In this document: positions 6,510 to 45,997 of the stretch, in pieces | Position numbering within the stretch: position 1 is the stretch's first letter | How the letters are laid out: each line of letters starts with the position of its first letter | NCBI GenBank assembly: GCA_032718475.1 | Contig: JAUCBJ010007860.1 | Coordinates: 1 to 64,000, forward strand | Length of the DNA: 64,000 bases | Direction: 5' to 3' | From: Nemertoderma westbladi | Lineage: Eukaryota > Animalia > Xenacoelomorpha | The notes under the pieces: model-generated | What the model saw: the letters and a program-made list of their open reading frames with translations, nothing else | Told to the model about the DNA's origin: nothing | The model's database searches: none | Program-made: the position numbers and the translations under genes

Positions 6510-6541
<32 letters not shown>

Positions 6542-16200: not shown

Positions 16201-16576
16201 GACTTGTAAATTTTTTGGTATAATTGTTACATAATTATTTAATAATATTTGATTATTTTATAATAATAATTTTAATTGCAACATTATATATACTTAGTGC
16301 CGTTTCTATGCGGCGAGTTGTTATATATCACAGTATATCTCTAGCAATATATCAAACATTACGGATGATGTAGTTAGCCAAGTACATAATTTAGACTTTA
16401 CAGCCCCAGACGAGTTACTTTGAAACATGACCTACTATAGTAGGTTATGACTAAAACATTAAATTATTTACAGTTGTCACAGCAACCTAATCAAACAAAT
16501 AAAATATTAGCCAACACCATCACTACTAATTTGAGAGATTCCACCAACATTTTACACATAATTTTTAATTACACAA

Positions 16577-18503
16577 TAATTGAAGAGATACGCCTATTCC
16601 TACTATTGGAAGAGACGGTAACAATACCTGCAATATCTTACTGTAAAGTTTGTAAATCAAATCATAAATCCGACCTTCTCACCAAAACAGTAAACTCTAA
16701 GTAAGCGAATATATTGCAGTATTGATCTCTTATAACCGGTGAGGCAGAAAACAGTCTACGAGCAGACAAACTTCGATGAAACAAAATCCCGCGCAGCGAA
16801 TCCTAAAATCAGGCTGACTCACTGACGGACTAAGGGGCTCGTATACTTTGCCGCGGTGTGATTTATATGGTTGGGCAAAGGGACGCTAGCTAGGTACAGG
16901 CAGAGATTTGGAGATGTCTAACTAGCGGGCAAAGCACAGTACGGACAAAGTTAATTTTATATATTTCGAGGTGTAAATAATTTCTAACGCGCGTGTGTTG
17001 ATTCTGAACGGTCAAAACAGTTTTGCTCCTTCACATATATAATTACTGGGTACGGTGTGCATTTTACGAATATTCTAATTTTATAACTTGTAGGTCCAAT
17101 ACTCACGAATGATAAGGTTCCTTCCCCTCTTGCGTATTTCCAGGACTCAAATTCAGGCATAAGGTTAATACTACGCCCAGAATTCGGCAATTTTAGGTAC
17201 CAGGTCCCTGATACTAAGAAGAGATGTGTTAGTTTACTACTGTAGGCGTACAGGTACTAATAGCTATCCTGGCTCCTATCTAGAATTTTAGTCACCCAGG
17301 TAGTCCGGGTAACTTCCTATTAGGGCGTTGGCGGGGACACGGTAGATGTTAGTATATCCCTGATAGCCTCAATTTATTTGCGCCTAGTGTAAACTGCCCT
17401 ACCGCCCGAACGGTACAATCCCAATTCAGGTGAAAACACAGCAACCCCCCTAGCCTACAAGTTCTAATGCAATGGACACTGTTGTACTGCAAATAGTCGC
17501 ACGCGCACCTGTACTTAGCAAGAGTTAAGCGTACAGTTTGCTGCACCCTAACCAATGTGTATGCCTTGTACCGGTGTGCCTACGTCCTATCTGCGTACTA
17601 GTATCTGCCTGCGCTCTCCCTCCCGTAGGAATGTGAAGGTCTACTGTGGGTTTTCCTGAATCAAGACAGTACAGTCCCTATGATGTAATTTTGGGCTTAC
17701 AGCGTGTCACTACGTCTACCTTTTGATCTTTTGGTCTTATACTTAGGTAGCAAGGATCGAACGCTGTCTAACCTTTCAGGCGATGGGCGAATAACTCTAA
17801 ATGGTATTGCGGGTTGTCTCTCGTCTACATTCCCGTGATGTTCCCGTTCATTGCTGCGGCCCGATCTCTAGCCGGCCATCCTGTCCCTGAGTTTGTTCAC
17901 CGTAGTGAATTCATAGTAAAACAGATAGAAAAGCTGAGAGAATATTCTGACTTTATTACAGAAGACACAATTATAATACAATGTAATCTGAGAATAAACT
18001 AAGCACGACAGAGAGATTGATTGAATGATAGATAGAATGTATAAGAAGTTTGTGTAAGTATAATAACTAATGAACGAAATCGCACCTTTATATACTAAAT
18101 TTGTGCCGCAATCAATCGAGAAAATTCTCGATTGTTCTATAGATTCTAACAAGGTTTTAAAGATAGCTATTGGTCCAGCTAATATATAACTTACACGACA
18201 TTGGTTACAATCAAATAACTACAGCCTTATTGGTACAGACAAATGCAATTAATTTGTAGCGGTTAATTTAAATGAGTTGAAATTCTGCACAAAAAATAAT
18301 TCGTACTTACTCGGATTCGAACTCGATACCTACTACACATATAATTTCCAACGCTCTACCAACTGAGCTACTGAACCACTTGACCGATAGATGTACAATA
18401 GATAGAACCAATACTAATGAGAACTCAAAGCAATCTTTACAAAGTTAATTCGAATAAAATAAAATTTTGAAAATCCACGGCATTTAAGGAATATAATTCT
18501 ATA
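16577..18503 (-). repeat. 3' LTR (1927 bp)
   Basis: Direct repeat of 34493-36421. By eye it differs by about 3 substitutions and one 2-bp indel. The preceding purine-rich GGAGCGG in element sense is a weak PPT candidate. Confidence 0.96.
18291..18377 (-). promoter_or_regulatory. tRNA-derived Pol III cassette inside the 3' LTR
   Basis: The minus strand reads GGTTCAG-TAGCTCAGTTGGTAGAGCG (A box/D-arm), then GAGTTCGAATCC (B box), then TTTTTT (terminator). There is no intact anticodon arm or acceptor stem. Confidence 0.65.
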
Positions 18504-20534
18504 CCGCTCCATGAAAACAGGATATTATCGTGCATAAAATATACGGTTTTCACCAATAATCAATCAAACTATAGAATACTTAGGGGCGTACTTACATATT
18601 TACAATTAAATTTCAAACAATACTTCCTTTCTACGTAATGATTCGATACAAAATAATTACAAATTCAAACCTTACGTATTTAAGGCTTTACTAAGTAAGT
18701 ACAATATAAATCTAAATTAAATTCACCAATATAAATCTATTGCATCTCAATATTGCATAAATTTAAACAATTACAAATACAAATAAATGAAAACAATAAG
18801 AAAGGCTCGCGAGTCTTCCATCTACTATTGCATCTCAAATATTGCATAAATTCAAGTAATTACAAATACTTGCGTACCTAAATGTAGATTGCATAAGTTT
18901 GGAATAATTACAAATGAGTCTTTCTGAGCACAAAATTTTCTAACTATAAAACTTTCTAAATACAAAATATAACACTTTACAAATGAAACTATAAGAAAGG
19001 CCCACGAGTCTTCCATCTACTCTTACTTTCTGTTTCACTGTAATACTGCTCATAAAATATAAATTGCATAATATTCGGAACAATATAAATTGCATAAGTT
19101 CGGAATAATATAAATTGCATAAGTTCGGAATAATCACAAATATAAAATATAAGTTTTACTAAATATAAGTTTTACAAAATATAAATTCTTATTTCTAAAT
19201 TTCATAAATTCGGAACAATACAAATTGCATAAGTTCGGAATAAGCACAAATATAAAATATACGCTTGTGTCCTTCTGGGCTCCTCCCCGAGGCGCACCCA
19301 CGAGGCGGACACCTTTCCACCACCCCTGGGGCCAGTCCGACTGCTTGTTATTATCAGACCGGGCCGGAGGGTGGCCTGATGCTTCCCGGGTTCAATTTTC
19401 AATTCCCCGATCACACCAGCACAGCTCGTCGAACATGTAGCCAGATGGGCGGCTACTGTCAACTTACTGTGGCCTGACTGTACATTGAGCCAACTCAAAG
19501 TATAACAAAGAGTCAACCGGCAGGTGGACCAGTCGATAGCGATCGAGCACCAAGGTCGCCCTTGGGCCTAACCGACGGTCTTGTCCCACGTGGGCTTGCG
19601 CTACCCAACATGGAATTTTGACTCGTTTTCACCTGCCTCGCCGGCAGTATTTAAAAAACAATACTGTCTGTAGCTCAAAAGCTACTGAACAAGTAACCAC
19701 TTACCAGTCACTGTACACGTGTACTCAACAGATGTTCACGAAATCAAGTACACAAACGGTAAGCACAAAATCGAACACATACCATGCACACACAGAGACA
19801 TAATCGGAAAGACAAAATCGGGTCAAAATCAGAAGGGACAAATTGTATCGACAAATAAAGAGTCGAGAGTACCTTATTTTACCGACAGGGTAAAATAACT
19901 TTGTGTGCACAAAGTATGCTGGGGCGCAGTAAAATATGGTCCTACTAATACCAGCGGCGTCTTGTCCAACTGGCAAGGGTTCCCATACTTACTCGCAGTG
20001 GCCACACATACAATCACGTGTACTCACGTACCTACAGCAACAGAAAGCTCAAAGACCCAAACAAATCCCAAAGACCAATCAGCTGAACATGGAGACAATA
20101 ACATATAGTATCAAAAAAACGGAACAGCTGATGGCCAAAGGAACCCATCCAAGCCCCAAGCAAACTGCCACTGGTTGCTCACATACAAAACATAGTTCAC
20201 ACCACATGAACCACAAATCACGCCATGCCACCACCCCTACTGTGTACAGGACTGGCAGTACGGCAACATGCCGACTAGACGGTACCACGGCACCATGGCA
20301 ATTCATGGTTCGTTAGACACGAGGGCCTTCAGTGACTCCCTAGCACTATATTAGTGATTTAACGTGCCCCCAGACCCTCACGAGTCCACCGCCGCCTGTT
20401 AAAACCACCCCTATAGAGACCTCACCTCTTTGGGTAGTTTTACTAAATTTTCTAAATATAAAACATATAATTCAAAATAAATCACAAATCATAAGAAAGG
20501 CCCACGAGTCTTCCGTCCACCCTTGCCCTCCCTT

Positions 20535-23500
20535 TTATCGCTTAGTAGATCGAGCCCTGCCGCGTCCTCGAAAACTGCGCACAGGTGACTTTGCTCGCGA
20601 TATGGGACTAATGGGGCGAGTCACTGGTTTACTTGGGACGTTGAGAGACGGTGCGACTATTTCCTCGCAAATTCGTCTATTTGGCATCCCAAAACCTCGA
20701 CCGATTCCTCGTGACCGATCAGTTGTCGCTACAGTTGGTAGAATGTCTGGGAACGCGCGAGAAGTGGACGACGCAGACCCAAGAGTAGCTTGCGCCCCCT
20801 GTTGATCAGCTGGTGTATGTCCCGATCCTCCTACCGGTTCTCTTGGAAGTGATACCGTATCCCGAGTAACTCGAATAGTCGGCTCAACTCCCTTGCGTTC
20901 TTCTACATTAATAATTTTCTTCAATTGTTGGCCCACCTTCTGGACCCGTATGATCCTACCCTGTCCGTCCTCCCGAGGGTGACGTGCAGACGGCGCAACC
21001 GGAGTGGCTGGTATATTTGTCGCCTCTAGGACCTCTTCTTCCTCGAATACGCTCGCTTGTATACGTTTGTGGTAAAACGCAGCTCGGTACGCCCATGCGA
21101 CGGTTAACCAAGCTCCCTTGTTCCGCTTTTCAGTTCGGAAACGATCGAATTCACCATACGTAATCCGATTAACGACTTTCTGAAAATTCCACGTGTTTTT
21201 GTTATCCGGGTGAATTTGTAACAGATACTCGCGCACCACTCGGAATCCGCTGTCGTGGGGCAAAATATCAACAACCTCGATAAGTTCGTCATATTGGGGC
21301 ATAGCGGAGATATATCCTTCCGACATCATCGTCTGGGGATTTACCGCCCAAAATCCGAGATGCGCTCTCATCGGAAACCGTCTTCTTTGTGCCGATACAT
21401 GTTCGTCGGCTAAATCTTCCCACTCATCAAATAACTTCCTCACGAGTTTTACAGATTCGTGTTCATAAGGTATGTCTCTCAGTTGGCATTCAGATGCTCG
21501 ATGTCCCTTTATATTGCAGTAAGTACATTGAGCCATAAATCTCCAGCAAGTATAAAAGGTATGAGACCCTTGATCCCCACACCATCCACAGATTAGCTGA
21601 GTCGTAGTAATGTGCTTTCCACTGCACTTTGCCATATGATGTCCAGCGACGCCACATTTACTACACATCGTATTGGCAGGGTACCACACTCGTTCGTATA
21701 TAAGATCTCCAATCGGTCGAGCGCTTCCTCCCATACTATAATCATAATCATCTGGGTCTATGGGTTGGTAGGTTTCTGAAGGTTGTATACAAACTATAGC
21801 ATCTGTTGCTTCAAGTTGTCGAATCTCCGTCTGAGATTTCTTCGGGAGGTTCCTTTCTATCTCAAGAAGTTCCTCTAAAGGATCGTCGGCGATCGTAGTA
21901 GTTACTTCGAATTCATCACCAAGGTGACCGATAGGCGCGCGCGTCTGCCGTGATTCATCCGTAATTTCCACGATACGTTCTCCTTCATAGGGTAACAATG
22001 TAAACATAGATGGTCTTTCGATAAGAGATCCCGCACAGCGAAGATACACGTCTCGAAATATGCTAAATCCTGCTCGAGTAAAGGCATTACACTGAGCGTC
22101 GGAGTTGTAGAAGGGTTCAAGGAATCGTCTAAACACGTCGGTACGAATTCTCCCTTCCATGTAGAACGTATGATCTTCTCCGAGACAAAGTGGATGTCTT
22201 TTGAGAGTCCGAGACACAATGTCGGCGATTAGGCAAACATTCACTGACGACTCTATCGCTAAATAATATTGTAAGACCGCTCTTGGAGGTGACGTAATAG
22301 CCCAATACACGCATCCTCTCCATTTAAGCTGTGATTCAAACTCACTCATATCTGGAGTATCACCTTCTCCATAAGTTTCAATATACTTGTTTCTTTTACC
22401 TTCCTTATAATCCCAATTGAATAACAGGTAGGAAATGTATCCAGTTCCAGTCTTCTGAGTATTATACTCACGAAAATATCCCTGTTCTATAGACCACAGA
22501 ATAAGAGGTCGAGTGTCGACGTATGGTGTCGGTAGTCGGTCATCGCTGTCCGTCATGCCGGCGAAGTCGCTAATTAAATCCTCCCTTACTCCTGATCCAA
22601 CCTTTACAACAGTTTTATCTAAAATCATGTTTCTTACCATCTTCGGTAACATTCTAGCGTCAATATTACAAGCTTGGTCCATCTTCTTTACTATATCGGT
22701 GATAAGATGGTGTCGCTTTGTATTCGCTGGAGGTATCGGCATTCGTTTGTCGCTCCTCTGTCTACTGAAAACGTGCAGGACTCCGTCCGCCGCTCTAATC
22801 TGTATAGTCTTAGAAGTCAAACTCTGCTGATGACTGCCGCCCTCGTTATCGTAAAACATATAACCGTTTTCCTGAAACGATCTAAACGTCCTAGTCCATT
22901 CATCCAACAATTCTTCCGAAGGTTGCCAAATCTTCTCTATATCCTTATCCTCATCGAAACGAATAACCTTACCTCGCCAATCTGCGGCAATATCTGTATC
23001 CGACTCGAAGGTTCCGGTTCCAATCCATAAACGAATCGTCTTGGTTAGATATCCTTTTAGATTACTCGGAGCTATGTCGGCACCAGCTCTATCCAGTTCC
23101 TTAAAATCTTGGATATGAGGTGGAACGTTGTTCACGACCTTTTGAGTAATATGTCTACGTAAATCATATATCTTACTCATATCGCTGAAAACAACTGCAG
23201 GAAGAAACTCCAAGTTTGAAATGATTTCTGGATGATCCACGATGGGTATTTCGTACGTCGTATCCTGTCGGACTGGTATACTAATAGGGAAATTGAGTGT
23301 CGTACTCAATGGTTTCGTAGCTGAAGTACTATACGGTTGCATTTCTCTTGGCCTCTCCGGGGATGCAATCTGTAGTCTCTGAATAACGTTTTGAGCAAAG
23401 TTTATGCTCTCGAAAACTTCCGGTGTCATCTCCTTAGCTGAAGTTTGATCGTGTGACGTCCAATGGCAAGGTAGGCTCGCGAGTCTTCCACCCCATTCTT

Positions 23501-24260
23501 CCATCTCACCTTTCTCGAAAGCCTTGTAGGCTCTGTATAGGCTAAGAGCTTCTTTCTTTTCGCGGGTTGACTGATTCGCCTCGTCCAGCGTAAGTTCAAA
23601 TACATCGGGTTCAACAACCTTAGGTGGGTAAATGACAGTTTCTCCCGCCTTTGGTCCGGTCATAGCAAATGAATGATATGGATTCGATAAAGGATACCCT
23701 CCTTCCTGGTAGCGTAGTTGTTGATGATTCGAACACCTCGCCAATATCGGTTCGGGATTTTCCTTATTCAAACGCATCGGAATCGCATTTCGTTGTTCGC
23801 GCATACAAGAACCGCATTGATAATAAAGTTTATAAACTGAAAATGCTTCCTTGGTTTCTCTATCGTCCCCTCGAGTTCGTCTGTAAAGATGCATTCCATC
23901 GAATTCATCGCGTACCGCGGGCATAGGTTCGTGCGCCTTTAGGTATTGCATGGTATGATACAAACGACTAATTTCAGTATCGGGGTCTTCGCTAATGTCT
24001 CCCGTATCACACAAAGCATCGTACGGGTAAAGTTCGTTGAAGGTTTGGCGCAAACTTTCGATTCTTTCGTTTAATGCGTTTTGCCTTCTCTTTAATACAT
24101 TCGAGTCATATTTAGTTCTCGCGAGTTTCGCTGTACTTTCCGATAATTCTTTTATACCGAATATAGTATAATCCTTGGCTCCAAATCTTTCGAATGGCGC
24201 TGCTGCCTCCTCTTGGATATCATATCCCCATCTCGGCTCTCCTTGTATCCCTTTCTCCAT
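20535..24260 (-). CDS. Retrotransposon accessory ORF2: DEDDy (WRN/EXD/RNase D-like) 3'-5' exonuclease-like domain plus three CCHC zinc knuckles
   Basis: Intact 1241-aa ORF. It has ExoI-like MFYDNEG, ExoII-like LPKMVRNMILDKTVVKVGSGVRED and ExoIII-like W..SPP..LQYYLAIE. The knuckles are CSKCGVAGHHMAKC, CGWCGDQGSHTFYTC and CTYCNIKGHRASEC, followed by an R/G-rich basic tail. Confidence 0.72.
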   Translation of the reverse strand: MEKGIQGEPRWGYDIQEEAAAPFERFGAKDYTIFGIKELSESTAKLARTKYDSNVLKRRQNALNERIESLRQTFNELYPYDALCDTGDISEDPDTEISRLYHTMQYLKAHEPMPAVRDEFDGMHLYRRTRGDDRETKEAFSVYKLYYQCGSCMREQRNAIPMRLNKENPEPILARCSNHQQLRYQEGGYPLSNPYHSFAMTGPKAGETVIYPPKVVEPDVFELTLDEANQSTREKKEALSLYRAYKAFEKGEMEEWGGRLASLPCHWTSHDQTSAKEMTPEVFESINFAQNVIQRLQIASPERPREMQPYSTSATKPLSTTLNFPISIPVRQDTTYEIPIVDHPEIISNLEFLPAVVFSDMSKIYDLRRHITQKVVNNVPPHIQDFKELDRAGADIAPSNLKGYLTKTIRLWIGTGTFESDTDIAADWRGKVIRFDEDKDIEKIWQPSEELLDEWTRTFRSFQENGYMFYDNEGGSHQQSLTSKTIQIRAADGVLHVFSRQRSDKRMPIPPANTKRHHLITDIVKKMDQACNIDARMLPKMVRNMILDKTVVKVGSGVREDLISDFAGMTDSDDRLPTPYVDTRPLILWSIEQGYFREYNTQKTGTGYISYLLFNWDYKEGKRNKYIETYGEGDTPDMSEFESQLKWRGCVYWAITSPPRAVLQYYLAIESSVNVCLIADIVSRTLKRHPLCLGEDHTFYMEGRIRTDVFRRFLEPFYNSDAQCNAFTRAGFSIFRDVYLRCAGSLIERPSMFTLLPYEGERIVEITDESRQTRAPIGHLGDEFEVTTTIADDPLEELLEIERNLPKKSQTEIRQLEATDAIVCIQPSETYQPIDPDDYDYSMGGSARPIGDLIYERVWYPANTMCSKCGVAGHHMAKCSGKHITTTQLICGWCGDQGSHTFYTCWRFMAQCTYCNIKGHRASECQLRDIPYEHESVKLVRKLFDEWEDLADEHVSAQRRRFPMRAHLGFWAVNPQTMMSEGYISAMPQYDELIEVVDILPHDSGFRVVREYLLQIHPDNKNTWNFQKVVNRITYGEFDRFRTEKRNKGAWLTVAWAYRAAFYHKRIQASVFEEEEVLEATNIPATPVAPSARHPREDGQGRIIRVQKVGQQLKKIINVEERKGVEPTIRVTRDTVSLPREPVGGSGHTPADQQGAQATLGSASSTSRAFPDILPTVATTDRSRGIGRGFGMPNRRICEEIVAPSLNVPSKPVTRPISPISRAKSPVRSFRGRGRARSTKR

Positions 24261-24928: not shown

Positions 24929-27900
24929 TTATTTACTAGTATTAGGTGGAGATTTGTAATCTCCAGACTCGTTACGAGTCTCTTCAAGAAGTACGAGACG
25001 TTGAGTCGGTCTGTCTACTGTACGACCGTCAATTGTCCGTACCATCACAGTTCTTGTCACTCCATCCATAGATGGATGTGTGGCTAAAATGACACCTGTT
25101 ATCCAGAAGCGTCTTTTTAGATTCACTTCTGCCAACAGCACGTGATCTCCCGGCTTTAATGCGCGGGTGTTATTATACCAAGTTGTTCTGGCAGAAATAG
25201 AGGGCAAATAATGGTTTTGCCATATTTCCCAGAATTTGTTAGCTAGTAGTTGCGTGATTTTCCACGCTTTTCTACCGTAACTGTCGCTTTCTATTGGAAT
25301 AGAAATAGGTGTCAAAGTTGTCGGTGCCTGCATAAGCAGGTGTGCCGGTGTCAAAGCAAACTGAGATTGTTTGTCATCGGGTACTAATACTATTGGTCTA
25401 GTATTTAGTATTGCCTCGATTTCAACAAACAATGTTGTCAGTTGGTCGTCTGTTAATATGTGGTTTACTGGAATGACCTTTGCCATTGCCGTCTTTATAG
25501 ATCTAATCAATCTCTCCCATACTCCGCCTCTCCAAGGACTATCTGGAGGATTGAACTTCCAAACAATCTTGTGAGGTTGTAGTTCGTTCGAGATTTGATC
25601 TTGATCTAATTTCTTAAAGGCTCTAGCAATTTCATTCCGAGCACCAACAAAGTTTGTCCCTTGGTCTGAGTACAAGCATTTTACTAGTCCGCGTCTAGCG
25701 ATAAATCGCCGCAGTGCTAGTATAAACGCGTTGGTGGAAAGATCCATCACACGTTCAATGTGAACTGCCCTACTGGACATACATGTGAAAATCAGTCCCC
25801 AGCGTTTTACTAGTATGCGTCCACGTTTCGTATGTATGGGACCAAAGCAATCAATTCCAGTCTCTGTAAAAGGTGGTCTGAATGCTTGAAGTCGTGCTTG
25901 TGGTAGTTCACTCATTTCTTGGGTACCTATTCTAGAATGTACCTTTTTACAAATAATACACGTACGTGTCACTGAACTTAATGCTTTACTGGGTCTAATT
26001 AATACAAATCTAGTACGTAAGTAGGAAAGACAGTGGTGTCTTCCAGCGTGTTTCAGATGTAGATGTGCGTCCAGTATCATTGCACGTTGTAGTTCGTGGT
26101 GTTGCGGTATTATTATTGGGTAACTAAAGTTTGTGTTAAAGTCAATGTTTTGAAGCCGAGATTTATGACAAATTAAGCCATTATAAATTATCGGACTCCA
26201 ACTCAGTATTGGTGACGACTTGATTGGTTGACCTTGACTTATAGATGTGAATTCGCGCGCGAAATATCGCAGTTGATAATGGCGAATTAATTTTATCTCA
26301 CACCTGTCAATCTCAGCCAATGTAAGTCGACGTGTAAAGTCGCGTTTGCCTTTAACGTATTGTACAAAACGTACAATCCACGCTAATTTTCGGCAAGCGC
26401 TTGTCCAAGAATCTGTTAAGTTTACAATACGGTCGACGTAAGTATTTGTGACGTCATCAGGTAAGTCAATTGAGAATTTGGAAGGTTTTGAATTACTAGA
26501 AGGGCCCACGGGTCCGCCGGTAAGTATTCCCTTGTTGACTGTTGATCCGTCCGGGTCTACAAGTAATTTGTCCTTCTTTGTCTTCTTACCTTGATTGTCA
26601 GTACTTTGTAAGTCGATCGTTAATGGTGGTTTGAACTCTATGGGATCAGTGGGTTTCGGTAAACTTATTTTTCTGCCGACATTAATCCCAGGTCTCACCA
26701 TAGGTTGCAAGTTCGGTATGTCTCTTGAGCGCAAAGTAACACCTGTATTTACATTAGCGTAGGTACTACCCACATCTGTAATACATGAGGTTTCACCGTG
26801 CTTATGGTTGCTCAAGTGTGTCAAAATTGGTAGTTTGTCAATACAAGGCCGCTCCAATAGGGAAACTGCGGCTTTATCGTTAGTCAATACATTACTAGTG
26901 TCTAGTCGACTGTCTAGTAATGTGTCTGGCGATACGTCTGGTAACGTATCTGGTTGTTTGTCAATAGAAGGCCGCTCCAATAGGGAAACTGCGGCTTTAC
27001 TGTTTGTCAGTGTGTTACTAGCGTCTGGTAGAATGTCTGGTTGACCGTCTAGTAACGTGTCTGGTTGACCGTCTGGTAACGTGTCTGGTTGACCGTCTGG
27101 TAACGTGTCTGGTTGACCGTCTGGCGATATGGCTGGTTGACCGTCTGGCGATATGTCTGGTTGACCGTCTGGCGATATGTCTGGTGTAGAAAGGCTCGCA
27201 AGTCTTCCTCTCTTGACCTTTGAAGTTATATCTTTCCATTTCGCCTTCGGTTTTTTCTTGAGTTTCGCCGCCGTCGTCTTTTTCTTTGTCTTCCCCTTTT
27301 TTGGTTTCTTGATTTCGGCGTCCTTGGGAATGGTGTTGGACTTGTTGTCGTATAACGGAGGCCAATCTTGTGTCGATTTCTGCAAGAATTGGGGTCCGTG
27401 TTGCCAAAATTCTTTGTTCTCCGGTTTACAGAATTCCTCAGGCATCATTCCTCGCGACGCAATATCAGCTGGGTTTTGTGGTCCGGGACAATGTCGCCAA
27501 TCCCCTTTTATTGAACGGTCTAGAATTTCCGCGCGACGGTTAGCAACGAATGTCTTGAATTCAAGTGTGTCGTTGTTTATGTAAAATAAAACCAACGTCG
27601 CGTCAGTCCAATAAAATATCTGTAAACTCGACTGTAGTTCTGTCTGTATGAGGTTCACGATGGTGGTTGACAGGGTTGCGGCTTGTAGCTCGGCTCGTGG
27701 TGTCGTCATATACTTAGTAGGCATGGTCTTAGCCTTAGAAGTAATGAGCGAAACATCGAACTCGTCTGATTCTACTTGTCTGCGTAAGTACGCTGCCACA
27801 CCAAAACCGTTGTCACTGGCGTCAGAAAAACAGTGTAGTTCCAAGTTGTCAGGAAATGTACTTTGCAATGGAAAGTAAACCCTGGGTATGAAATAATCCT

Positions 27901-30900
27901 CTAGCGAAGATAATTCCGCCTCCCAGGTCTTCCATAAGTCCACTTGGTCTGATGAGATCGGCTCGTCCCATGTTAGTCCATCTTTCCATATACTGCGCAT
28001 ATAAATGCGGGCTTGCAGTATCACTGGACTGATGAATCCTAACGGATCGAACAATCGGCTCAATTTTGACAAGCATGATCTCTTGGTCAGTGTGTTCCCT
28101 TGACTGTCCAGTCTCACCTTCACTCGAAAGTTGTCTGTGTTTGGGTCCCAAAAGAGCCCCAACACCTTAGTCGTCGGTAGTGGTTCGAACTCTAGGTCTA
28201 TGTCACCACCTCCACGCTCAGTAGTTCCGAATGAGTCTACTAATTCGGCACTGTTTGAGGCGAATTTGGTGAGGTTAAAACCTCCGCCCGCCAAGCAGTC
28301 CCGTAATTGATGTGCTACTGTTGTAGCACGTTCTACTGTGTCGCAACTCTGTAATCCGTCATCAACGTAAAAGTCACGCTCCACAATTCTAATTATCTCT
28401 GGGTCATATAGATGTTTCTGATCCCTAGCGGCCTGCTTTAGGGCGTACATCGTACAATTTGGGCTGTCTCTGGCACCGAAAACGCGAACTTGCATTTGGT
28501 AAGTCGCCGGTGGTAGACTTAAATCTCCTTCCGGGTACCAGAGGAACCGCAAACTGTCTCTGTCTCGCTCTAACGCTTTTACTTGGTGAAACATCGCTTC
28601 AACTTCGCAAGTAAAGGCTACTTGACGCTGACGGAAGCGCATAATCACCCCCATAAGATAATTATTCATGTTCGGTCCATCCATCAACTCACTATTGAGG
28701 GACATTCCCTCAAACAGAGCCGCACAGTCATTGACTACACGTACTTTGTCTGGTTTGTCGGGGTGTCTCACGTAGTGATGTGGCAAGTAATACGTTTGGT
28801 CGGTCACTCGCTCCGGGTTAGTCATTCGGATAGCGTATCCCTTTGTCAAATACGTCTCCATCTGAGTGTTATACTGCAGATGGGCTTTCTCGTCCTTTAA
28901 TAGACGTTGCCGTATTGAGTGTAGACGTCTTAAAGCCAGCGGATAGTTGTTTATAAGTTTAGGACTTTGGCTACGCCATAACATCCCTACCTCATAATGT
29001 CCGTCCTTCGTCTGGTGGATAGTATCTTCCATGATCTTCAGAGATTGTTTCTCCTGTTCCGACATGCAAGGTTCGTAGCTACCAGGTTCAGCTGTATCTT
29101 GTTCTAACCACCTGATAGTCTTCTCCGTTAATTCTTTGTCCAAGGCGGCTTGTTCCAACTGATGATTTCTCAACGCGTCATCATCGATATCGACTGGCAC
29201 TGTTGAGGTTATTGGGGTAGGTAGACTCGCAAGCCTATCATCTGTCGTCGATGGAATCTCTAGCTGACTCGTCTTCCCCCCAAGTTCTAAACTCACCTTG
29301 TGGGTTAGCTGCTCCTTGTGACTTATCATACTAGTTACACGTCTGTCGTGTTTGGTCGACTGTAGTGTAGTATGGTTCGCGTCGTGTGAGAAGGAATGAA
29401 TTGAATTTGTAGTTAATAAACTACATGTACTCTGTACATCGTCTTCCTCGTCACTTACGTCTAGTGTGCGCACAGGCGCTCGAGTATACCACCCTATCGG
29501 CGTTCTGCAGGCGTATGCGTTTCCCGCTACAACTGCCGATGGTCTGGTTTCCCACACCTGATGTAGGTTGAATTGGTCCGTCCCGATCAGCATGGCTACC
29601 GATCTATAATTGACAGGACATTCGGGTACACCAAGGTGTCTGAAATACTTACGGTCCTCTAGAGATTGTTCCGGCACTGGACCTAGTAGGTTACTAAAGT
29701 CCTTCGTGGCCGCAAAGGTTAGATCTCTAAAGGGTAACAAAGACCTCTCCCTCTCGCTGTGTTGCGATTTTGGAAGAAGAGAGTCTAAGTTTAACTTGAC
29801 TCGTGTCACTGGTATTGCACGCTGTCCGTGCATACTACTTACGGTATAACTGACACGCTTACCTTGTTTAAGATCCGTCACGACGTCAGCTATCTTTTCG
29901 TCCACGTAGCTATGAGATGAGGCTGAATCTAGAATCGCATAGATCCTCTTGCTCCCCTTTGTGCCAGTAACCTTAATCGGGATTACACTGAACCCCTTCA
30001 GTTGATCAGTAGTCAGGAGCGCGATCGACGGTTGTTCGTCTCCATTGGAATATTCATCGTCGTCTTCTGATTCTTCGTCCGACGATCCGGATTGTTCTGA
30101 GAAGCAATCCTCAATATGGGTCACGAAGGTTGGAGTCGTTTTCGATTCTCGTTTTCGGTAGGCCGCATCACATCTCGCTGCTGCTTCCGGGTGTTCCCTG
30201 GCGAAGCGTTTCGTCGGCGTGTGGCTGTCTGTGTGGAGCAGACCGTCATGGTTGCGTCCACAGGATGGACAAGTGTCGGTATTTGGGCAATCCTTACGCA
30301 CGTGTCCGTGTCGCGTACACCGCCAACAAGAGTCCAGTGGCCGTATCTGCAGCCGTCGTTCTTCCGAGTTCAACTCGCGAAATTGTCGACAACCTCGTAA
30401 CTTGTGACCAATATACCGCTTACCTAGATGCTCGCAGTATTGGCAGCCGTTGAAGTCGGTGCTGAGTTGCTGTCTCGTCTGTTTCGTCCCAATGGGCGCA
30501 GATACTCTATTACCGTCTGAGAATTGTCGTGATTCCGTCGGTGTGGCGTAAGTGGCCGTCTTAGTGGATGTTGTCTGGGGTTTTTGTCGGTTGGAGGATG
30601 GCAGCGTGATTCCTTCTGCCACGATGTGCTGGTCGGTGTAGTTAGATCGAGTTTCTACTACCGCCTCCCTGGATATTAAAAGGTACACATCTTCTAATTT
30701 TAAGAATCCTCCCCGCTCCTCTCGCTGGTATTCGACCTTCCTCCACTCCCGACGAAGTCGATGGTGGAGTCGTCCTATTATCTTTAATAGGACTGTAGGG
30801 GTATTCCCGTAATCAAGTTGTCCAATTGATCTTAAGGTAGTGATAGCGTTCTTGATCTCGTCAGCTAGTTTTAGTAAGTCGACGGGTTTAGTGATAGCCC

Positions 30901-33685
30901 CTCCCTTACAGAGTTCCTCTATTACTGACCTGGCCATGCTCACTGTACCTCCGTATATCGAAGTTAAACGATCGTACGCTAGTTCGAAAGCGTCCGGTAC
31001 ACCGACGAAAGTCTCCGCCAAACGTTTAGGTTCTCCTGACAACGTTTGGAGCAGGTAATTGAACTTCTCCCGTGATGTAAAGGCGCACACGGCGATCTGG
31101 GATTCGATATAGTCTACGAAGGTATGCCAGTGTTTTGAGCTACCGGAGAACTTCGGTGGTTGTTGTACCGGCAATCCCTGTCTGGCTGCGAATTTCGCTA
31201 TCTCCTCGGCAACGTTCAGAGTTTCGCGTCCTTGGTTGGTAACTTGGTTGATATCCCTTCTTGGCGCTTTTCCCTGATACGATGTGGGGTTTGAAGGTAC
31301 CGGTCTTTGTGGTTCCTTCGGGTGTCTATTGTGTTCGAATTCGGAATTTCTCGAACTGTCGGTGTAACCTTCCTCCAGACGTTCCTCGATCTGAGCCAAC
31401 TTATTGACAACTGGTCGCAGAATGTCGGCGAACTGTTGTGTACTAATTGCGTCCGTTGGTTGTAACGCCTTCGGTGTTGGTGTATTCTGTGGAGGATTGT
31501 CTGCAAAGGAGTTGTCTGAACGCTCGCGTTTATATTCATCGGCCCCCCCTGTTCTAAATACCTCGCGTTTCGGGTAATCCGATTCGCTCGAAGTACTACT
31601 ATCATCTGGATATGGTGGTCGACGTGCTCGCGTTCGTTGCGTCGTACGAATTCTCACGTTACGTTTCGGAACATCGTCCACTGATCTCCGTTGTTCGGTA
31701 GGCTCACAAGTCTTCCTCGAAGTCGTAGATTGCGATGTGAACTGGTTGAGCGGTCGCGTATCCACTGGTCTCCGTTGTTCGGTAGGCTCACAAGTCTTCC
31801 TCGAAGTCGTAGATTGCGATGCAAACTGAACCGGTGGACGAATGACAGCATTTGAATCAACTGGCCTTGTAGGTCGAAACGTCATTGGGTATTCGTAGTG
31901 CGTAACGGGTTTAGGTGTCAAAGGTGGACTCACCTGTTTTGTCGTCAGTAGTGCAGGTCCGGTCAATAAACTACTACGATCTGTAATCGGTGGGTTACTT
32001 ACCTTGACCCTCAAAATAGGCGACGACGTTGCTCTTGAAGGTATAAACTTGTCCGGAATAACAAACCTGTGTTCCGTCACACCATGGATAGGAGAGATAT
32101 CACTGCTACCAGCAATCGAAACAGGTTCCTTAGTCGTAACAGGTGCAAACATAGGAGTTACCTGAGGGAATCTTTGACATAAGTCCTTAACTAATTGTCT
32201 TTCTCGTCCAGGTGCCCCTACCGAACCTTCCTTCATTCGTTCCTGGATTTGGCGGTGCCTTACCTCTAACTGGTCTAGATCATGTCCATCACGAGATCTC
32301 ATCGATCGATCACGAGCTAGAAGATCCAGATTTTCCTTGGTTTCGGCTAATTCTCTCGCCCTTTTCTCAAGTTCGAAACGGAGTTTAACTTCCTTTTCTC
32401 GTTGTTCCGTTTGTTGTTGTTGCGCCTCCAACTCTGCTTGTCGTATCGCTTGTTGGGCTTTTATTTGCCGTGTCTTCATCTCGACTCTGGCTTCTGAAAC
32501 TAGTCGCTTTCTTTCTAACTCCGCCACTTCCGTTTGTCGCTCTAACTCGGCTGCCGCCGTTTGTCGCTCTAACTCGGCTGCCGCCGTTTGTCGCTCTAAC
32601 TCGGCTGCCGCCGTTTGTCGCTCTAACTCGGCCGTTGCCGTTCGTTGCGCTAACTCGGCCGCTGCCGCTTGTTGGTCCAACTGTCCAATGTCCAACTCTA
32701 ACCTTTCCATTTCGGCCGCTTCGAGTTCGGCTTGTTCCTGCAGATGAGAGATTCTCGCTACATTCGCGACACGTATTTTCTCTTCCTCTACCGCTGTTTG
32801 TATCATTAGAAGTTGAGCTTGTTCTTCCATATCGTGTTGCTGTCTGTAGAACTGTTGCTGTTGTCGAGCAACTTCTGACGTGACCATACTTCCCTCGCAG
32901 ATTTCGCTACGAATACTTACCAGCGATTGATTTAGTATTCCCGGTGCCGATTCGATTTGTGCAAATGAAGTTTCCCTCGTATATTCCGGCACGGTTTCCA
33001 AATCGCCGACGTCTTCGCCGCACATGCGTAAGTGGTCCGTCAGGTGTTTTAATTGTCCATCCAGTCGGTACAGTTCCTGTTCTTCCTCGGGTTGTAATAA
33101 TTCGTCCGAAACTGACTCACCTAACAACTGGTCCGCTTGTTCCTGTTGTATCTGTCTAATCGTCGACTTAAACTGAATCAGTTTCTCTCTAGTGGTCATT
33201 AGTTTCTCGAGGATTCTAAGTTGAGTATCCATGTCCTGTCTCTGTCTAGCTAGATCTTGTAGGCCAACTAGATTATCTACGGACTTATATACTTTACTCT
33301 GTACTCTAACCTGGAGGGTGTAGAACTCGAATCGAGACATCGGAGCGGTCAACCCGTCTAATATGCGTTGGCCTTCTCCAATACTCCTGGTTATATGCGC
33401 CATGTAGCCACCGACGCTTCTAACCACACTTTCTGTGCTTCCTGCTGAACTTACCATTTCCGTTTCCCTGTATCTAGGTTGCGGAACAGTTAGAAAGTCC
33501 TCGGTCCTGCCGTCACCTCGTACTACGGCATCCGGTACTCCCGTTGGATGTACTGGTGACGCACACGGTGTAGGTTCGGTAGGCTCGCGAGTCTTCCCCT
33601 GTTGTTCTTCCGCTGCTGACTTATCTCCGTCGCATGAGTCATAGTCGGTTTGTGTATTCTTCGTATAGTCTTGTTTGTCACTCAT
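24929..33685 (-). CDS. BEL/Pao gag-pol polyprotein (2918 aa)
   Basis: Motifs in order: coiled coil; PPKFSG (DUF1759-like); three Cys/His knuckles ending HDGLLH; protease ILDSAS; RT YYLPHH, KVRVV, FYVDD; RNase H LHCFSDAS, PRAELQAA, YWTD, NPADIASRG; integrase H..H..CIIC, GIDCFGP, YSDQGTNF, GVWERLI. Confidence 0.97.
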   Translation of the reverse strand: MSDKQDYTKNTQTDYDSCDGDKSAAEEQQGKTREPTEPTPCASPVHPTGVPDAVVRGDGRTEDFLTVPQPRYRETEMVSSAGSTESVVRSVGGYMAHITRSIGEGQRILDGLTAPMSRFEFYTLQVRVQSKVYKSVDNLVGLQDLARQRQDMDTQLRILEKLMTTREKLIQFKSTIRQIQQEQADQLLGESVSDELLQPEEEQELYRLDGQLKHLTDHLRMCGEDVGDLETVPEYTRETSFAQIESAPGILNQSLVSIRSEICEGSMVTSEVARQQQQFYRQQHDMEEQAQLLMIQTAVEEEKIRVANVARISHLQEQAELEAAEMERLELDIGQLDQQAAAAELAQRTATAELERQTAAAELERQTAAAELERQTAAAELERQTEVAELERKRLVSEARVEMKTRQIKAQQAIRQAELEAQQQQTEQREKEVKLRFELEKRARELAETKENLDLLARDRSMRSRDGHDLDQLEVRHRQIQERMKEGSVGAPGRERQLVKDLCQRFPQVTPMFAPVTTKEPVSIAGSSDISPIHGVTEHRFVIPDKFIPSRATSSPILRVKVSNPPITDRSSLLTGPALLTTKQVSPPLTPKPVTHYEYPMTFRPTRPVDSNAVIRPPVQFASQSTTSRKTCEPTEQRRPVDTRPLNQFTSQSTTSRKTCEPTEQRRSVDDVPKRNVRIRTTQRTRARRPPYPDDSSTSSESDYPKREVFRTGGADEYKRERSDNSFADNPPQNTPTPKALQPTDAISTQQFADILRPVVNKLAQIEERLEEGYTDSSRNSEFEHNRHPKEPQRPVPSNPTSYQGKAPRRDINQVTNQGRETLNVAEEIAKFAARQGLPVQQPPKFSGSSKHWHTFVDYIESQIAVCAFTSREKFNYLLQTLSGEPKRLAETFVGVPDAFELAYDRLTSIYGGTVSMARSVIEELCKGGAITKPVDLLKLADEIKNAITTLRSIGQLDYGNTPTVLLKIIGRLHHRLRREWRKVEYQREERGGFLKLEDVYLLISREAVVETRSNYTDQHIVAEGITLPSSNRQKPQTTSTKTATYATPTESRQFSDGNRVSAPIGTKQTRQQLSTDFNGCQYCEHLGKRYIGHKLRGCRQFRELNSEERRLQIRPLDSCWRCTRHGHVRKDCPNTDTCPSCGRNHDGLLHTDSHTPTKRFAREHPEAAARCDAAYRKRESKTTPTFVTHIEDCFSEQSGSSDEESEDDDEYSNGDEQPSIALLTTDQLKGFSVIPIKVTGTKGSKRIYAILDSASSHSYVDEKIADVVTDLKQGKRVSYTVSSMHGQRAIPVTRVKLNLDSLLPKSQHSERERSLLPFRDLTFAATKDFSNLLGPVPEQSLEDRKYFRHLGVPECPVNYRSVAMLIGTDQFNLHQVWETRPSAVVAGNAYACRTPIGWYTRAPVRTLDVSDEEDDVQSTCSLLTTNSIHSFSHDANHTTLQSTKHDRRVTSMISHKEQLTHKVSLELGGKTSQLEIPSTTDDRLASLPTPITSTVPVDIDDDALRNHQLEQAALDKELTEKTIRWLEQDTAEPGSYEPCMSEQEKQSLKIMEDTIHQTKDGHYEVGMLWRSQSPKLINNYPLALRRLHSIRQRLLKDEKAHLQYNTQMETYLTKGYAIRMTNPERVTDQTYYLPHHYVRHPDKPDKVRVVNDCAALFEGMSLNSELMDGPNMNNYLMGVIMRFRQRQVAFTCEVEAMFHQVKALERDRDSLRFLWYPEGDLSLPPATYQMQVRVFGARDSPNCTMYALKQAARDQKHLYDPEIIRIVERDFYVDDGLQSCDTVERATTVAHQLRDCLAGGGFNLTKFASNSAELVDSFGTTERGGGDIDLEFEPLPTTKVLGLFWDPNTDNFRVKVRLDSQGNTLTKRSCLSKLSRLFDPLGFISPVILQARIYMRSIWKDGLTWDEPISSDQVDLWKTWEAELSSLEDYFIPRVYFPLQSTFPDNLELHCFSDASDNGFGVAAYLRRQVESDEFDVSLITSKAKTMPTKYMTTPRAELQAATLSTTIVNLIQTELQSSLQIFYWTDATLVLFYINNDTLEFKTFVANRRAEILDRSIKGDWRHCPGPQNPADIASRGMMPEEFCKPENKEFWQHGPQFLQKSTQDWPPLYDNKSNTIPKDAEIKKPKKGKTKKKTTAAKLKKKPKAKWKDITSKVKRGRLASLSTPDISPDGQPDISPDGQPAISPDGQPDTLPDGQPDTLPDGQPDTLLDGQPDILPDASNTLTNSKAAVSLLERPSIDKQPDTLPDVSPDTLLDSRLDTSNVLTNDKAAVSLLERPCIDKLPILTHLSNHKHGETSCITDVGSTYANVNTGVTLRSRDIPNLQPMVRPGINVGRKISLPKPTDPIEFKPPLTIDLQSTDNQGKKTKKDKLLVDPDGSTVNKGILTGGPVGPSSNSKPSKFSIDLPDDVTNTYVDRIVNLTDSWTSACRKLAWIVRFVQYVKGKRDFTRRLTLAEIDRCEIKLIRHYQLRYFAREFTSISQGQPIKSSPILSWSPIIYNGLICHKSRLQNIDFNTNFSYPIIIPQHHELQRAMILDAHLHLKHAGRHHCLSYLRTRFVLIRPSKALSSVTRTCIICKKVHSRIGTQEMSELPQARLQAFRPPFTETGIDCFGPIHTKRGRILVKRWGLIFTCMSSRAVHIERVMDLSTNAFILALRRFIARRGLVKCLYSDQGTNFVGARNEIARAFKKLDQDQISNELQPHKIVWKFNPPDSPWRGGVWERLIRSIKTAMAKVIPVNHILTDDQLTTLFVEIEAILNTRPIVLVPDDKQSQFALTPAHLLMQAPTTLTPISIPIESDSYGRKAWKITQLLANKFWEIWQNHYLPSISARTTWYNNTRALKPGDHVLLAEVNLKRRFWITGVILATHPSMDGVTRTVMVRTIDGRTVDRPTQRLVLLEETRNESGDYKSPPNTSK

Positions 33686-34480: not shown

Positions 34481-34492
34481 TCACATTCCTAC
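34481..34492 (-). promoter_or_regulatory. Primer-binding site, non-tRNA type (GTAGGAATGTGA), complementary to an LTR-internal 12-mer
   Basis: It is flush with the 5' LTR end and lacks the TGG start expected for tRNA-CCA pairing. The plus-strand sequence here is the exact reverse complement of 35543-35554. Confidence 0.7.
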
Positions 34493-36421
34493 TAATTGAA
34501 GAGATACGCCTATTCCTACTATTGGAAGAGACGGTAATAATACCTGCAATATCTTACTGTAAAGTTTGTAAATCAAATCATAAATCCGACCTTCTCACCA
34601 AAACAGTAAACTCTAAGTAAGCGAATATATTGCAGTATTGATCTCTTATAACCGGTGAGGCAGAAAACAGTCTACGAGCAGACAAACTTCGATGAAACAA
34701 AATCCCGCGCAGCGAATCCTAAAATCAGGCTGACTCACTGACGGACTAAGGGGCTCGTATACTTTGCCGCGGTGTGATTTATATGGTTGGGCAAAGGGAC
34801 GCTAGCTAGGTACAGGCAGAGATTTGGAGATGTCTAACTAGCGGGCAAAGCACAGTACGGACAAAGTTAATTTTATATATTTCGAGGTGTAAATAATTTC
34901 TAACGCGCGTGTGTTGATTCTGAACGGTCAAAACAGTTTTGCTCCTTCACATATATAATTACTGGGTACGGTGTGCATTTTACGAATATTCTAATTTTAT
35001 AACTTGTAGGTCCAATACTCACGAATGATAAGGTTCCTTCCCCTCTTGCGTATTTCCAGGACTCAAATTCAGGCATAAGGTTAATACTACGCCCAGAATT
35101 CGGCAATTTTAGGTACCAGGTCCCTGATACTAAGAAGAGATGTGTTAGTTTACTACTGTAGGCGTACAGGTACTAATAGCTATCCTGGCTCCTATCTAGA
35201 ATTTTAGTCACCCAGGTAGTCCGGGTAACTTCCTATTAGGGCGTTGGCGGGGACACGGTAGATGTTAGTATATCCCTGATAGCCTCAATTTATTTGCGCC
35301 TAGTGTAAACTGCCCTACCGCCCGAACGGTACAATCCCAATTCAGGTGAAAACACAGCAACCCCCCTAGCCTACAAGTTCTAATGCAATGGACACTGTTG
35401 TACTGCAAATAGTCGCACGCGCACCTGTACTTAGCAAGAGTTAAGCGTACAGTTTGCTGCACCCTAACCAATGTGTATGCCTTGTACCGGTGTGCCTACG
35501 TCCTATCTGCGTACTAGTATCTGCCTGCGCTCTCCCTCCCCCGTAGGAATGTGAAGGTCTACTGTGGGTTTTCCTGAATCAAGACAGTACAGTCCCTATG
35601 ATGTAATTTTGGGCTTACAGCGTGTCACTACGTCTACCTTTTGATCTTTTGGTCTTATACTTAGGTAGCAAGGATCGAACGCTGTCTAACCTTTCAGGCG
35701 ATGGGCGAATAACTCTAAATGGTATTGCGGGTTGTCTCTCGTCTACATTCCCGTGATGTTCCCGTTCATTGCTGCGGCCCGATCTCTAGCCGGCCATCCT
35801 GTCCCTGAGTTTGTTCACCGTAGTGAATTCATAGTAAAACAGATAGAAAAGCTGAGAGAATATTCTGACTTTATTACAGAAGACACAATTATAATACAAT
35901 GTAATCTGAGAATAAACTAAGCACGACAGAGAGATTGATTGAATGATAGATAGAATGTATAAGAAGTTTGTGTAAGTATAATAACTAATGAACGAAATCG
36001 CACCTTTATATACTAAATTTGTGCCGCAATCAATCGAGAAAATTCTCGATTGTTCTATAGATTCTAACAAGGTTTTAAAGATAGCTATTGGTCCAGCTAA
36101 TATATAACTTACACGACATTGGTTACAATCAAATAACTACAGCCTTATTGGTACAGACAAATGCAATTAATTTGTAGCGGTTAATTTAAATGAGTTGAAA
36201 TTCTGCACAAAAAATAATTCGTACTTACTAGGATTCGAACTCGATACCTACTACACATATAATTTCCAACGCTCTACCAACTGAGCTACTGAACCACTTG
36301 ACCGATAGATGTACAATAGATAGAACCAATACTAATGAGAACTCAAAGCAATCTTTACAAAGTTAATTCGAATAAAATAAAATTTTGAAAATCCACGGCA
36401 TTTAGGGAATATAATTCTATA
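34493..36421 (-). repeat. 5' LTR (1929 bp)
   Basis: Direct repeat of 16577-18503. It contains an element-sense AATAAA at 35289-35294 and the Pol III cassette at 36209-36295. Confidence 0.96.
36209..36295 (-). promoter_or_regulatory. tRNA-derived Pol III cassette inside the 5' LTR
   Basis: Same A box, B box and T6 layout as 18291-18377. Confidence 0.65.
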
Positions 36422-45843: not shown

Positions 45844-45997
45844 TAACCCGAAGATGTAGCCACGCGCTAGTGGATACATATAATATTTGAAATTAAAATT
45901 GCGTTGATTAGAGTTATATATGTAAATTTAGAAATATTCGGGTGGCAAGTTTATTTTGAATATTTTGTATTAGATTCAAAAAATTATTTGTGTCATC

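Follow-up and report, generated by a model that had tools for sequence, protein, structure and literature searches.

What does a long open reading frame do in the env position of a retrotransposon if it encodes a predicted nuclease instead of an envelope protein? The question arises in a 64,000-nucleotide stretch of Nemertoderma westbladi DNA (contig JAUCBJ010007860.1, positions 1 to 64,000; here the window). An intact, unusually long Bel/Pao retrotransposon of 19.8 kb (19,845 bp) occupies positions 16577-36421 on the minus strand (Table 1). Its Bel/Pao membership is given by the domain order of gag-pol, the Bel/Pao-specific domains Peptidase_A17 (E 1e-41), DUF1759 and DUF5641 (Pfam), two LTRs and a target-site duplication (TSD). 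The element is young; 5' and 3' LTR, compared with each other, are 99.7% identical and differ by three substitutions and one 2-nt indel. The TSD sequence is compatible with 4-6 bp, the ends being symmetric at 5 bp, and the LTR termini differ from TG...CA. A weak purine run precedes the 3' LTR. The ICTV profile of Belpaoviridae lists elements of 4.2-10 kb with LTRs of 0.2-1.2 kb (PMC8742986), ranges exceeded here by both the element and its 1.9 kb LTRs.

Table 1. Features of the Bel/Pao element (positions in the window)
Feature	Position	Strand	Description
5' LTR	34493..36421	-	1929 bp; TA...TA termini if TSD read as 5 bp
3' LTR	16577..18503	-	1927 bp
TSD, 5' LTR side	36422..36426	.	compared with empty site near 57493, duplicated host unit
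TSD, 3' LTR side	16572..16576	.	
tRNA-like stretch in LTR	36209..36295	-	A box 36288, B box 36240, T6 run 36214
Candidate self-primer	35543..35554	-	12 nt complementary to PBS; duplex -17.5 kcal/mol; second copy 17625-17636, 3' LTR
Purine tract	35527..35542	-	just 3' of candidate primer; predicted pairing with last ~17 nt of LTR, stacked beside PBS duplex
Primer-binding site (PBS)	34481..34492	-	directly after 5' LTR; no TGG start; 12/12 complement of LTR-internal 12-mer
9-bp hairpin, C(UACG)G loop	34458..34479	-	immediately 3' of PBS; 8 Watson-Crick pairs
gag-pol	24929..33685	-	2918 aa, single frame, PR-RT-RH-IN order, catalytic motifs present
ORF2	20535..24260	-	1241 aa, open frame; env position, 668 nt past pol stop
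CxxC...CxxH pair, N-terminal	23724..23816	-	aa 149-179; CxxC 23816-23805, CxxH 23735-23724
EXD2/WRN-type DEDDy exonuclease domain	22191..22898	-	aa ~455-690: D471, E473, D561, Y666, E670
CCHC zinc knuckles, three	21486..21665	-	aa 866-879, 891-905, 912-925; 21665-21624, 21590-21546, 21527-21486
Post-knuckle motif	21351..21422	-	aa 947-970; invariant E, A, R, G
3' untranslated region	18504..20534	-	2 kb; short internal repeats

A sequence-only reading had described ORF2 as an intact frame between pol and the 3' LTR on the same strand, and as something other than env. The frame is indeed open throughout (24260-20535). A membrane anchor is absent, since the top 19-residue hydrophobic window of the protein reaches 1.38 (Kyte-Doolittle) and no furin-type RxKR/RxRR site was found. 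Pfam detected no fusion-protein homology either, and an env function is rejected on these three grounds. Frames of the ORF2 family are separate from pol, and the spacers of 570-930 nt contain splice-acceptor-like or TATA-like sites. The N-terminal CxxC...CxxH region has no counterpart in any homolog.

Profile comparison identifies the central domain as homologous to EXD2/WRN-type DEDDy exonucleases, beyond chance. The ExoI, ExoII and ExoIII motifs named in the earlier reading were located (codons of D471 and E473, 22850-22842; KVGSGVRED, 22604-22578; LQYYLAIE, 22274-22251). They make up a DEDDy signature of ExoI D-x-E, ExoII D and ExoIII Y-x3, in which the last D is replaced by E670. A three-sequence alignment matched 78 bacterial EXD2-like proteins with 95% probability in hhalign (E 3.6e-8). 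Probabilities of the profile-profile comparisons ranged from 95 to 97%, those of the controls stayed under 4% (0.06% for the reversed alignment, up to 3.8% in 100 column shuffles), and ORF2 as a single sequence reached 41%. The seven-sequence family profile retrieved human EXD2 (6k17) from the PDB with an E-value of 1.7e-5. The proposed combination of a WRN/EXD-type DEDDy exonuclease with three CCHC knuckles is upheld. Local hhalign alignments span ExoI to ExoII; ExoIII was aligned in global mode only. The exonuclease domain of EXD2 and WRN (PDB 6K17, 2E6L), the best structural-database match of the family, aligns at ExoI and ExoII, but ORF2 lacks a membrane anchor as well as HNH-like and helicase parts, and is retroelement-borne. 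Pfam alone misses the domain, ORF2 not reaching the PF01612 cut-off, and a single-sequence PDB search with ORF2 yielded a chance match only. PF01612 is present in 50% of the members of the Atlas neighbours (score 0.92). Two AlphaFold models, with a pLDDT of 30 and 34, yielded no fold.

A full HMMER scan gave three matches, of which P0002 and P0003 were retained; P0001 was dropped, its match being confined to the knuckles. Among 54 fetched loci, six encode homologs, and in five of these the gene follows a Bel/Pao pol of the same strand. The other 48 pattern-matched loci were set aside as cellular exonucleases or chance. Word-indexed searches with ORF2 returned no homologs, and plasmid and phage collections held no meaningful match. 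Exonuclease, three knuckles and C-terminal motif are common to eight homologous sequences. RT/RH/IN of the five Bel/Pao relatives is 32-36% identical (~33%) to that of the element, and the seven aligned homologs are 22-28% identical to ORF2 of the window. The ExoI D and E and the ExoII D are invariant, and ExoIII Y-x3-[DE] is kept in all seven aligned proteins; the last acidic residue is D in five and E in ORF2 and P0003. Within the relatives, as distinct from the window's own lineage, dN/dS of the exonuclease is 0.07-0.15 (6/6 pairs) and that of knuckles plus motif 0.14-0.23. The exonuclease of the relatives is under strong purifying selection. It is 83-91% identical among them, against 77-85% for pol, whose dS is saturated so that no dN/dS was derived.

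ORF2 might act as an RNA-binding scaffold or decoy with weak or lost nuclease activity, like Maelstrom or EXD1. This would agree with the ExoIII E for D in two of the seven aligned proteins and with long insertions in the exonuclease domain of the window. Retention of the four acidic positions and the tyrosine in 7/7 proteins, just distantly identical to the window's, makes such a role unlikely, however.

The three CCHC knuckles reported earlier are present and nucleocapsid-like. The unnamed C-terminal motif behind them occurs in all seven aligned homologs and matches nothing in Pfam or the PDB; for the region of knuckles and motif the Atlas returned no family (best score 0.79). A cellular enzyme has a similar layout. 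RNase D of Trypanosoma brucei (TbRND, PDB 7C42) consists of a DEDD exonuclease followed by four CCHC fingers, which hold the RNA at a distance of 5-9 nt from its 3' end (PMC7797062). Both of its parts match the three-sequence profile weakly (E 0.35). TbRND trims guide RNAs in the cell and belongs to the RNase D group (PMC7797062), whereas ORF2 has three fingers and resides in a retroelement. The seven-sequence profile does not match TbRND at E<=1, so the two fusions are probably convergent. The knuckle fusion had been thought new; as an architecture it is not, given the trypanosome enzyme, while no description of it in a retroelement was found, nor of the exonuclease-knuckle family in the Bel/Pao literature searched.

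A capture of DEDDy ORFs by bdelloid retroelements had been named as precedent, correctly: the LTR elements Juno and Vesta and the Athena/Terminons carry a DEDDy ORF3 (Rodriguez et al., 2017, PMC5408684). ORF3 is likewise a separate ORF after pol with intact acidic residues, lacks a membrane anchor and occurs in young elements, but its hosts are Gypsy-like or Penelope-like (same source). By published description it is RNase D-like with DEED residues, whereas the ORF2 family is EXD2-like with DEDE/DEDD; the published text consulted describes no knuckle array in ORF3, in contrast to the three knuckles plus extra motif of ORF2 (PMC5408684). The bdelloid env-slot genes were described without demonstrated function or selection signal (PMC5408684). 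With ORF2, genes of this kind extend to a second LTR superfamily, where they form a conserved family on which purifying selection is strong.

The sequence-only reading had further noted a self-complementary PBS, and the 12 nt at 34492-34481 do pair with 35554-35543. An LTR complement exists for just three others among the 15977 internal 12-mers, and no TGG occurs within ~90 nt after the LTR. The Bel/Pao PBS is described as 18 nt complementary to a host tRNA (ICTV profile, PMC8742986). The PBS of the element is an exception to this trait, not to the RT-based membership, and adds candidate tRNA-independent priming to a family that is tRNA-primed in that profile. Tf1, Tf2 and Tj1 (Tf1/sushi group) also have a PBS complementary to 11-12 nt of their own LTR and no tRNA site. 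They are Ty3/gypsy elements in which the primer is the mapped RNA 5' end and no extra nuclease is described, whereas the element is Bel/Pao. In Tf1-type self-priming RNase H cuts to give the 3'-OH, and an exonuclease is not part of the described mechanism (PMC7175516). The element likely self-primes like Tf1, in which case RNase H and not ORF2 would generate the 3'-OH.

The predicted pairing of the purine tract has -15.3 kcal/mol, equalled by 2% of 3965 windows of 20 nt within the element. The hairpin beside the PBS (34458-34479) has the longest UNCG stem of the element. The candidate 12-mer lies 870 nt into the LTR. Whole-leader folds keep the PBS duplex for six of nine starts (35552, 35554, 35575, 35600, 35700, 35900); it is missing from the best fold for 35750, 35800 and 35990 (within 1.3-3.5 kcal/mol). 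Such modelled folding cannot place the transcript start. By eye, an initiator-like pyrimidine-A motif is seen at 35554. A splice-built primer is rejected, because all 12 nt lie uninterrupted in the DNA and no AG stands just before them.

The earlier reading had tied ORF2 to the self-complementary PBS and proposed that ORF2 could trim an LTR-derived RNA to the 12-bp PBS duplex, yielding the primer 3'-OH. The comparison covered the PBS type of ORF2-bearing relatives, the converse of self-priming relatives without ORF2; a search for close self-priming relatives yielded none. In all four relatives whose PBS is readable, the site begins with TGG, resembles that for tRNA-Lys(1,2) and has a self-complement of at most 7 nt. 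ORF2 thus does not track self-priming, its function appears independent of the priming mode, and the proposed tie is not supported. For trimming, for instance of a folded-back genomic RNA 3' end, the 12-nt duplex is real and the geometry would be possible, because the 12-mer is followed after 250 nt by a poly(A) signal and preceded by a TATA box at a distance of 460 nt. DEDD enzymes commonly stall at duplexes, which would suit such trimming as well. Against it stand the four tRNA-type relatives and the bases 3' of the 12-mer, whose predicted pairing with the U5 end better suits an endonucleolytic cleavage as in Tf1. Trimming by ORF2 is quite improbable.

ORF2 may instead be a replication helper that trims the element's own 3' ends (genomic RNA, remnants left by RNase H, or overhanging cDNA ends prior to integration) and enters particles via its knuckles. 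The very strong conservation of the exonuclease domain and the nucleocapsid-like knuckles are consistent with this role, as is a U5 that apparently ends in TA against the PBS in element and relatives, although the relatives' LTR ends are inferred from single-LTR contigs. Processing of 3' ends has been proposed for the bdelloid DEDDy ORFs (PMC5408684). However, ORF2 lies outside the polyprotein, and gag and pol alone suffice for most Bel/Pao elements (PMC8742986), which leaves this role possible but doubtful. Proofreading of reverse transcription in trans, like that of ExoN for large RNA virus genomes, would fit the DEDD class and a length of 19.8 kb against 4.2-10 kb for the family. The ORF2-bearing relatives measure only about 10.8 kb, the three knuckles point to RNA, and a contact with the RT is not indicated, so proofreading is highly improbable.

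The reading tentatively favoured, at somewhat under an even chance, is that of a long-retained accessory 3'-5' RNase directed most likely against host small-RNA silencing, not primer making. Degradation of small RNAs used in silencing was the second role suggested by the sequence-only reading, and this suggestion stands as a candidate. Distant relatives with tRNA-type sites keep ORF2, which points to countering host RNA defence rather than to primer making. DEDDy genes also occur in the Penelope-like Terminons, which replicate differently (PMC5408684); this favours a function outside replication chemistry. ORF2 may be expressed from its own transcript, spliced or internally started. Like trypanosome RNase D, the protein would grip single-stranded RNA a few bases from the 3' end, here by knuckles and basic tail, and deliver the strand to a two-metal active site. 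The substrates would be small silencing RNAs or their precursors, and their degradation would protect the element from the host. Mature piRNAs, however, are 2'-O-methylated and resist such exonucleases. The relatives' exonuclease is also more conserved than pol, a pattern for which a fixed replication task is no worse an account than an arms race, and the last acidic residue is E, not D, in ORF2 and P0003. According to Rodriguez et al., small RNAs cover ORFs of every type, and the presence of DEDDy ORFs shows no clear relation to copy number (PMC5408684), which likewise speaks against counter-defence.

Should ORF2 indeed attack silencing RNAs, it would be an enzyme by which an animal transposon suppresses RNA silencing. 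The RNA-gripping module gives a clear biochemical prediction, and the role of such captured nucleases is testable with one purified protein. A wider view is rather doubtful: a deep animal Bel/Pao lineage in which an EXD2-derived, knuckle-guided RNase takes the place of env as a dedicated silencing suppressor, this member being in addition Tf1-like in self-priming and grown to 20 kb.

The LTR also contains a tRNA-like stretch, in which neither ARAGORN nor Rfam called a tRNA; an Rfam search found no ribozyme. Helenus TRIMs similarly carry tRNA-derived A and B boxes within the LTR and no working cloverleaf, but are non-autonomous and under ~1.3 kb, whereas the Nemertoderma element is autonomous (Kojima, 2024, PMC10886601).

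Self-comparison of the window gives two long direct repeats, 99.7% identical, which enclose the two frames of the Bel/Pao retrotransposon. Its gag-pol contains PR, RT, RH and IN in this order, all present, and Pfam assigns the Bel/Pao domains Peptidase_A17, DUF1759 and DUF5641. The element comprises 19,845 bp with LTRs of 1.9 kb, about twice the upper size limit in the ICTV profile of Bel/Pao (4.2-10 kb, LTR 0.2-1.2 kb; PMC8742986). The second copy of the host unit, without the insertion, represents the empty site. Target-site duplications of 4, 5 or 6 bp are each compatible; symmetric TA...TA ends occur with 5 bp. The element inserted recently and retains two open frames.

Features of the retrotransposon and its surroundings in the window
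Feature	Position	Strand	Remark
Direct repeats	16577-18504; 34493-36422
gag-pol	33685-24929	minus	2918 aa, between LTRs
ORF2	24260-20535	minus	1241 aa, between LTRs
LTR 12-mer pairing with PBS	35554-35543
Purine run after candidate primer	35543-35536	minus
LTR end with first 8 PBS nt	34530-34485	minus	near-duplicate upstream in LTR
tRNA-like A box, B box, T6 terminator	36295-36209	minus	in LTR; also at matching place in 3' LTR
TATA-like box	36012		in LTR; others elsewhere
Poly(A) signals	35875; 35294		in LTR
Motif of ~14 nt	24632; 20505; 19005; 18810	minus	once before ORF2, three times in 3' UTR
Empty site	near 57493
SAMHD1-like dNTPase genes	14776-16200; 55706-57139	plus	intronless
Duplicated block	1220-7715; 45997-52496		6.5 kb, 98.6%
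RVT_1 of broken element	2456-3769		in duplicated block
MITE-like element	7933-8468; 53829-54373; 60736-61271		~540 bp
Third satellite array	from near 61800

ORF2 has no furin-type site, and its top hydrophobic 19-mer scores 1.38, in agreement with the sequence-only reading that it is not env; every motif named there was found at its stated position. Pfam returned weak knuckle matches and nothing else, a PDB search with the single ORF2 sequence gave no convincing match, and AlphaFold models stayed at pLDDT 30 (single sequence) and 34 (three sequences), too low to establish a fold. In the atlas, ORF2 aa 400-760 adjoins 30 clusters (score 0.92, 168 features in common); PF01612 is present in 24 of them, a placement that served as no more than a lead. 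A full HMMER scan yielded three proteins, two of which (P0002 and P0003) resemble ORF2 in exonuclease motifs, three knuckles and one further motif. Bacterial EXD2-like proteins, gathered by an ExoI motif, served as reference set; of 120 loci, 78 were usable. Profile-profile alignment of the ORF2 group with these 78 scored 95% (E 3.6e-8), pairing D471/E473 with the reference ExoI and D561 with ExoII; the global mode placed Y666-x3-E670 on the reference Y-x3-D. The reversed and 100 column-shuffled controls reached a maximum of 3.8%, the remaining ORF2 segments stayed below 2%, and the exonuclease segment as single sequence gave 41%. A seven-sequence profile scored 96.6% against the EXD2-like set and found human EXD2 as top PDB match (E 1.7e-5); neither RNase D nor Rrp6 matched at E<=1. 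At the level of sequence profiles, the proposed homology to DEDDy exonucleases is borne out.

An ExoII pattern from the three-protein alignment yielded 54 loci, 49 from metagenomes and 5 viral. Six of these 54 encode ORF2 homologs, five with a whole frame (E 1e-26 to 2e-29) and one with a split frame. The search presupposes the ExoII match; independent evidence comes from the genomic context and from the match of the knuckle-plus-motif domain (E 1e-14 to 1e-18). A same-strand pol lies upstream at five of the six loci and is Bel/Pao by Pfam in both cases tested. The remaining locus, L138, is 98% identical to L160, and the six loci represent four families; in L138 and L160, two copies of one family, ORF2 occupies two frames in L138 and gag is split in L160. 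RT, RH and IN of the relatives share 32-36% identity with the window's element, the exonuclease 27-28% over the aligned part. All seven aligned proteins possess the ExoI D and E, the ExoII D, the ExoIII Y-x3-[DE], the knuckle array and the post-knuckle motif (aa 947-970). In comparisons among the four families (6/6 pairs each), the exonuclease has dN/dS values of 0.07-0.15, knuckles plus motif 0.14-0.23 and the basic tail 0.31-0.43. The N-terminal ~430 aa of the window's ORF2, including CxxC...CxxH, have no match in the relatives' homologs. The ORF2 observation stands and is stronger than first reported, because a conserved accessory-gene family has been defined. In L129, L135, L159 and L160, synonymous divergence (pS) is 0.75-0.81 in pol but 0.42-0.63 in ORF2; the lower ORF2 values may point to constraint on codons or to ORF2 exchange between families.

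DEDDy ORF3 proteins with a DEED motif are described for Juno, Vesta and Terminons, in the available part of that report with no activity demonstrated and no clear selection (Rodriguez et al., 2017, PMC5408684); excerpts of PMC6431247 and PMC6338049 repeat this account. The word 'exonuclease' is absent from the available main text of a Bel/Pao survey of 62 genomes (PMC3118150), and the available parts of PMC3601003, PMC3286476 and PMC11662393 mention for Bel/Pao neither self-priming nor an ORF for an exonuclease. Neither was found in the literature searched, mostly without subscription papers. Early papers on the BEL-like Cer elements of C. elegans reportedly mention a domain resembling an exonuclease, and a primer encoded by the element itself; if so, exonuclease capture by Bel/Pao elements has in part been published before.

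The window's element has no TGG-type PBS directly 3' of its 5' LTR. Instead, the first 12 nt after this LTR are the exact complement of an LTR 12-mer; 3 other internal 12-mers of 15977 have a complement in the LTR. A purine tract 3' of the LTR 12-mer is predicted to pair with the LTR end beside the PBS duplex, as 2% of windows do equally well, and a UACG hairpin lies 3' of the PBS. The arrangement appears Tf1-like; there, according to excerpts, the PBS duplex is formed by the initial 11 bases, which RNase H separates from base 12 onwards (PMC7175516, PMC4600332). The LTR signals are compatible with more than one transcript-start model, and whole-leader folds keep the PBS duplex for 6 of 9 candidate starts.

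The sequence-only reading had tied ORF2 to such a self-complementary PBS, as possible maker of the self-primer. Among the relatives, the PBS was reached at four of six loci (three families), with LTR limits deduced from single-LTR contigs, and starts with TGG in all four. It equals the tRNA-Lys(1,2) site over 13 nt in L135 and matches with one extra base in the others (site as quoted in an excerpt of PMC8775094); self-complements within the own contig do not exceed 7 nt. ORF2 is thus independent of PBS type: strong selection maintains it even in elements for which a tRNA should supply the 3'-OH. Its proposed part in making the self-primer, the most striking inference, is not supported. A secondary priming use in the window's element is compatible with the data, though the reason to suppose it is removed.

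ORF2 would be made from its own transcript; the spacer ahead of it measures 570-930 nt in these elements and carries sites that are acceptor-like or TATA-like. Its knuckles may grip single-stranded RNA close to the 3' end, in the manner described for the fingers of trypanosome RNase D in the available part of PMC7797062. Host silencing RNAs are the favoured, if tentative, target, because 3'-5' exonucleases recur across elements of differing replication chemistry, including Penelope-like Terminons (PMC5408684, in part), and most Bel/Pao elements replicate without one. The high conservation of the exonuclease speaks against this target. Mature piRNAs are methylated, which also counts against it. 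The main rival, somewhat less likely, is that ORF2 trims RNA or cDNA ends of the element itself.

The tRNA-like boxes in the LTR are reminiscent of Helenus, for which such boxes are already known (PMC10886601, in part); the window's element differs in being autonomous. The first 10 nt of this stretch reappear in the 3' arm of the PBS-adjacent hairpin. The LTR end and first 8 PBS nt have a near-copy 26 nt upstream, inside the LTR, which looks like the trace of an earlier transfer of part of the PBS into the LTR. The purine run that follows the candidate primer opens with the same 8 letters as the relatives' polypurine tract, which sits just before the LTR start in L128, L129, L135 and L138; the actual 3' LTR of the window's element is preceded by a weak tract only. 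A shifted plus-strand start may have lengthened the LTR by ~880 bp. The relatives' LTRs measure ~290 bp (L128:883-1174, L138:2791-3080, element orientation), and in those of L128 and L138 the start forms an inverted repeat of 10-11 bp with a stretch ~30 nt short of the LTR end.

The two SAMHD1-like genes (E 1e-98 to human SAMHD1) share 452 identical residues of ~470. Each follows a 31-bp satellite array inside the duplicated host unit, and the retrotransposon lies 376 bp beyond the first copy's stop codon. The 6.5-kb block contains a broken reverse-transcriptase element, and the three MITE-like copies have long inverted arms.
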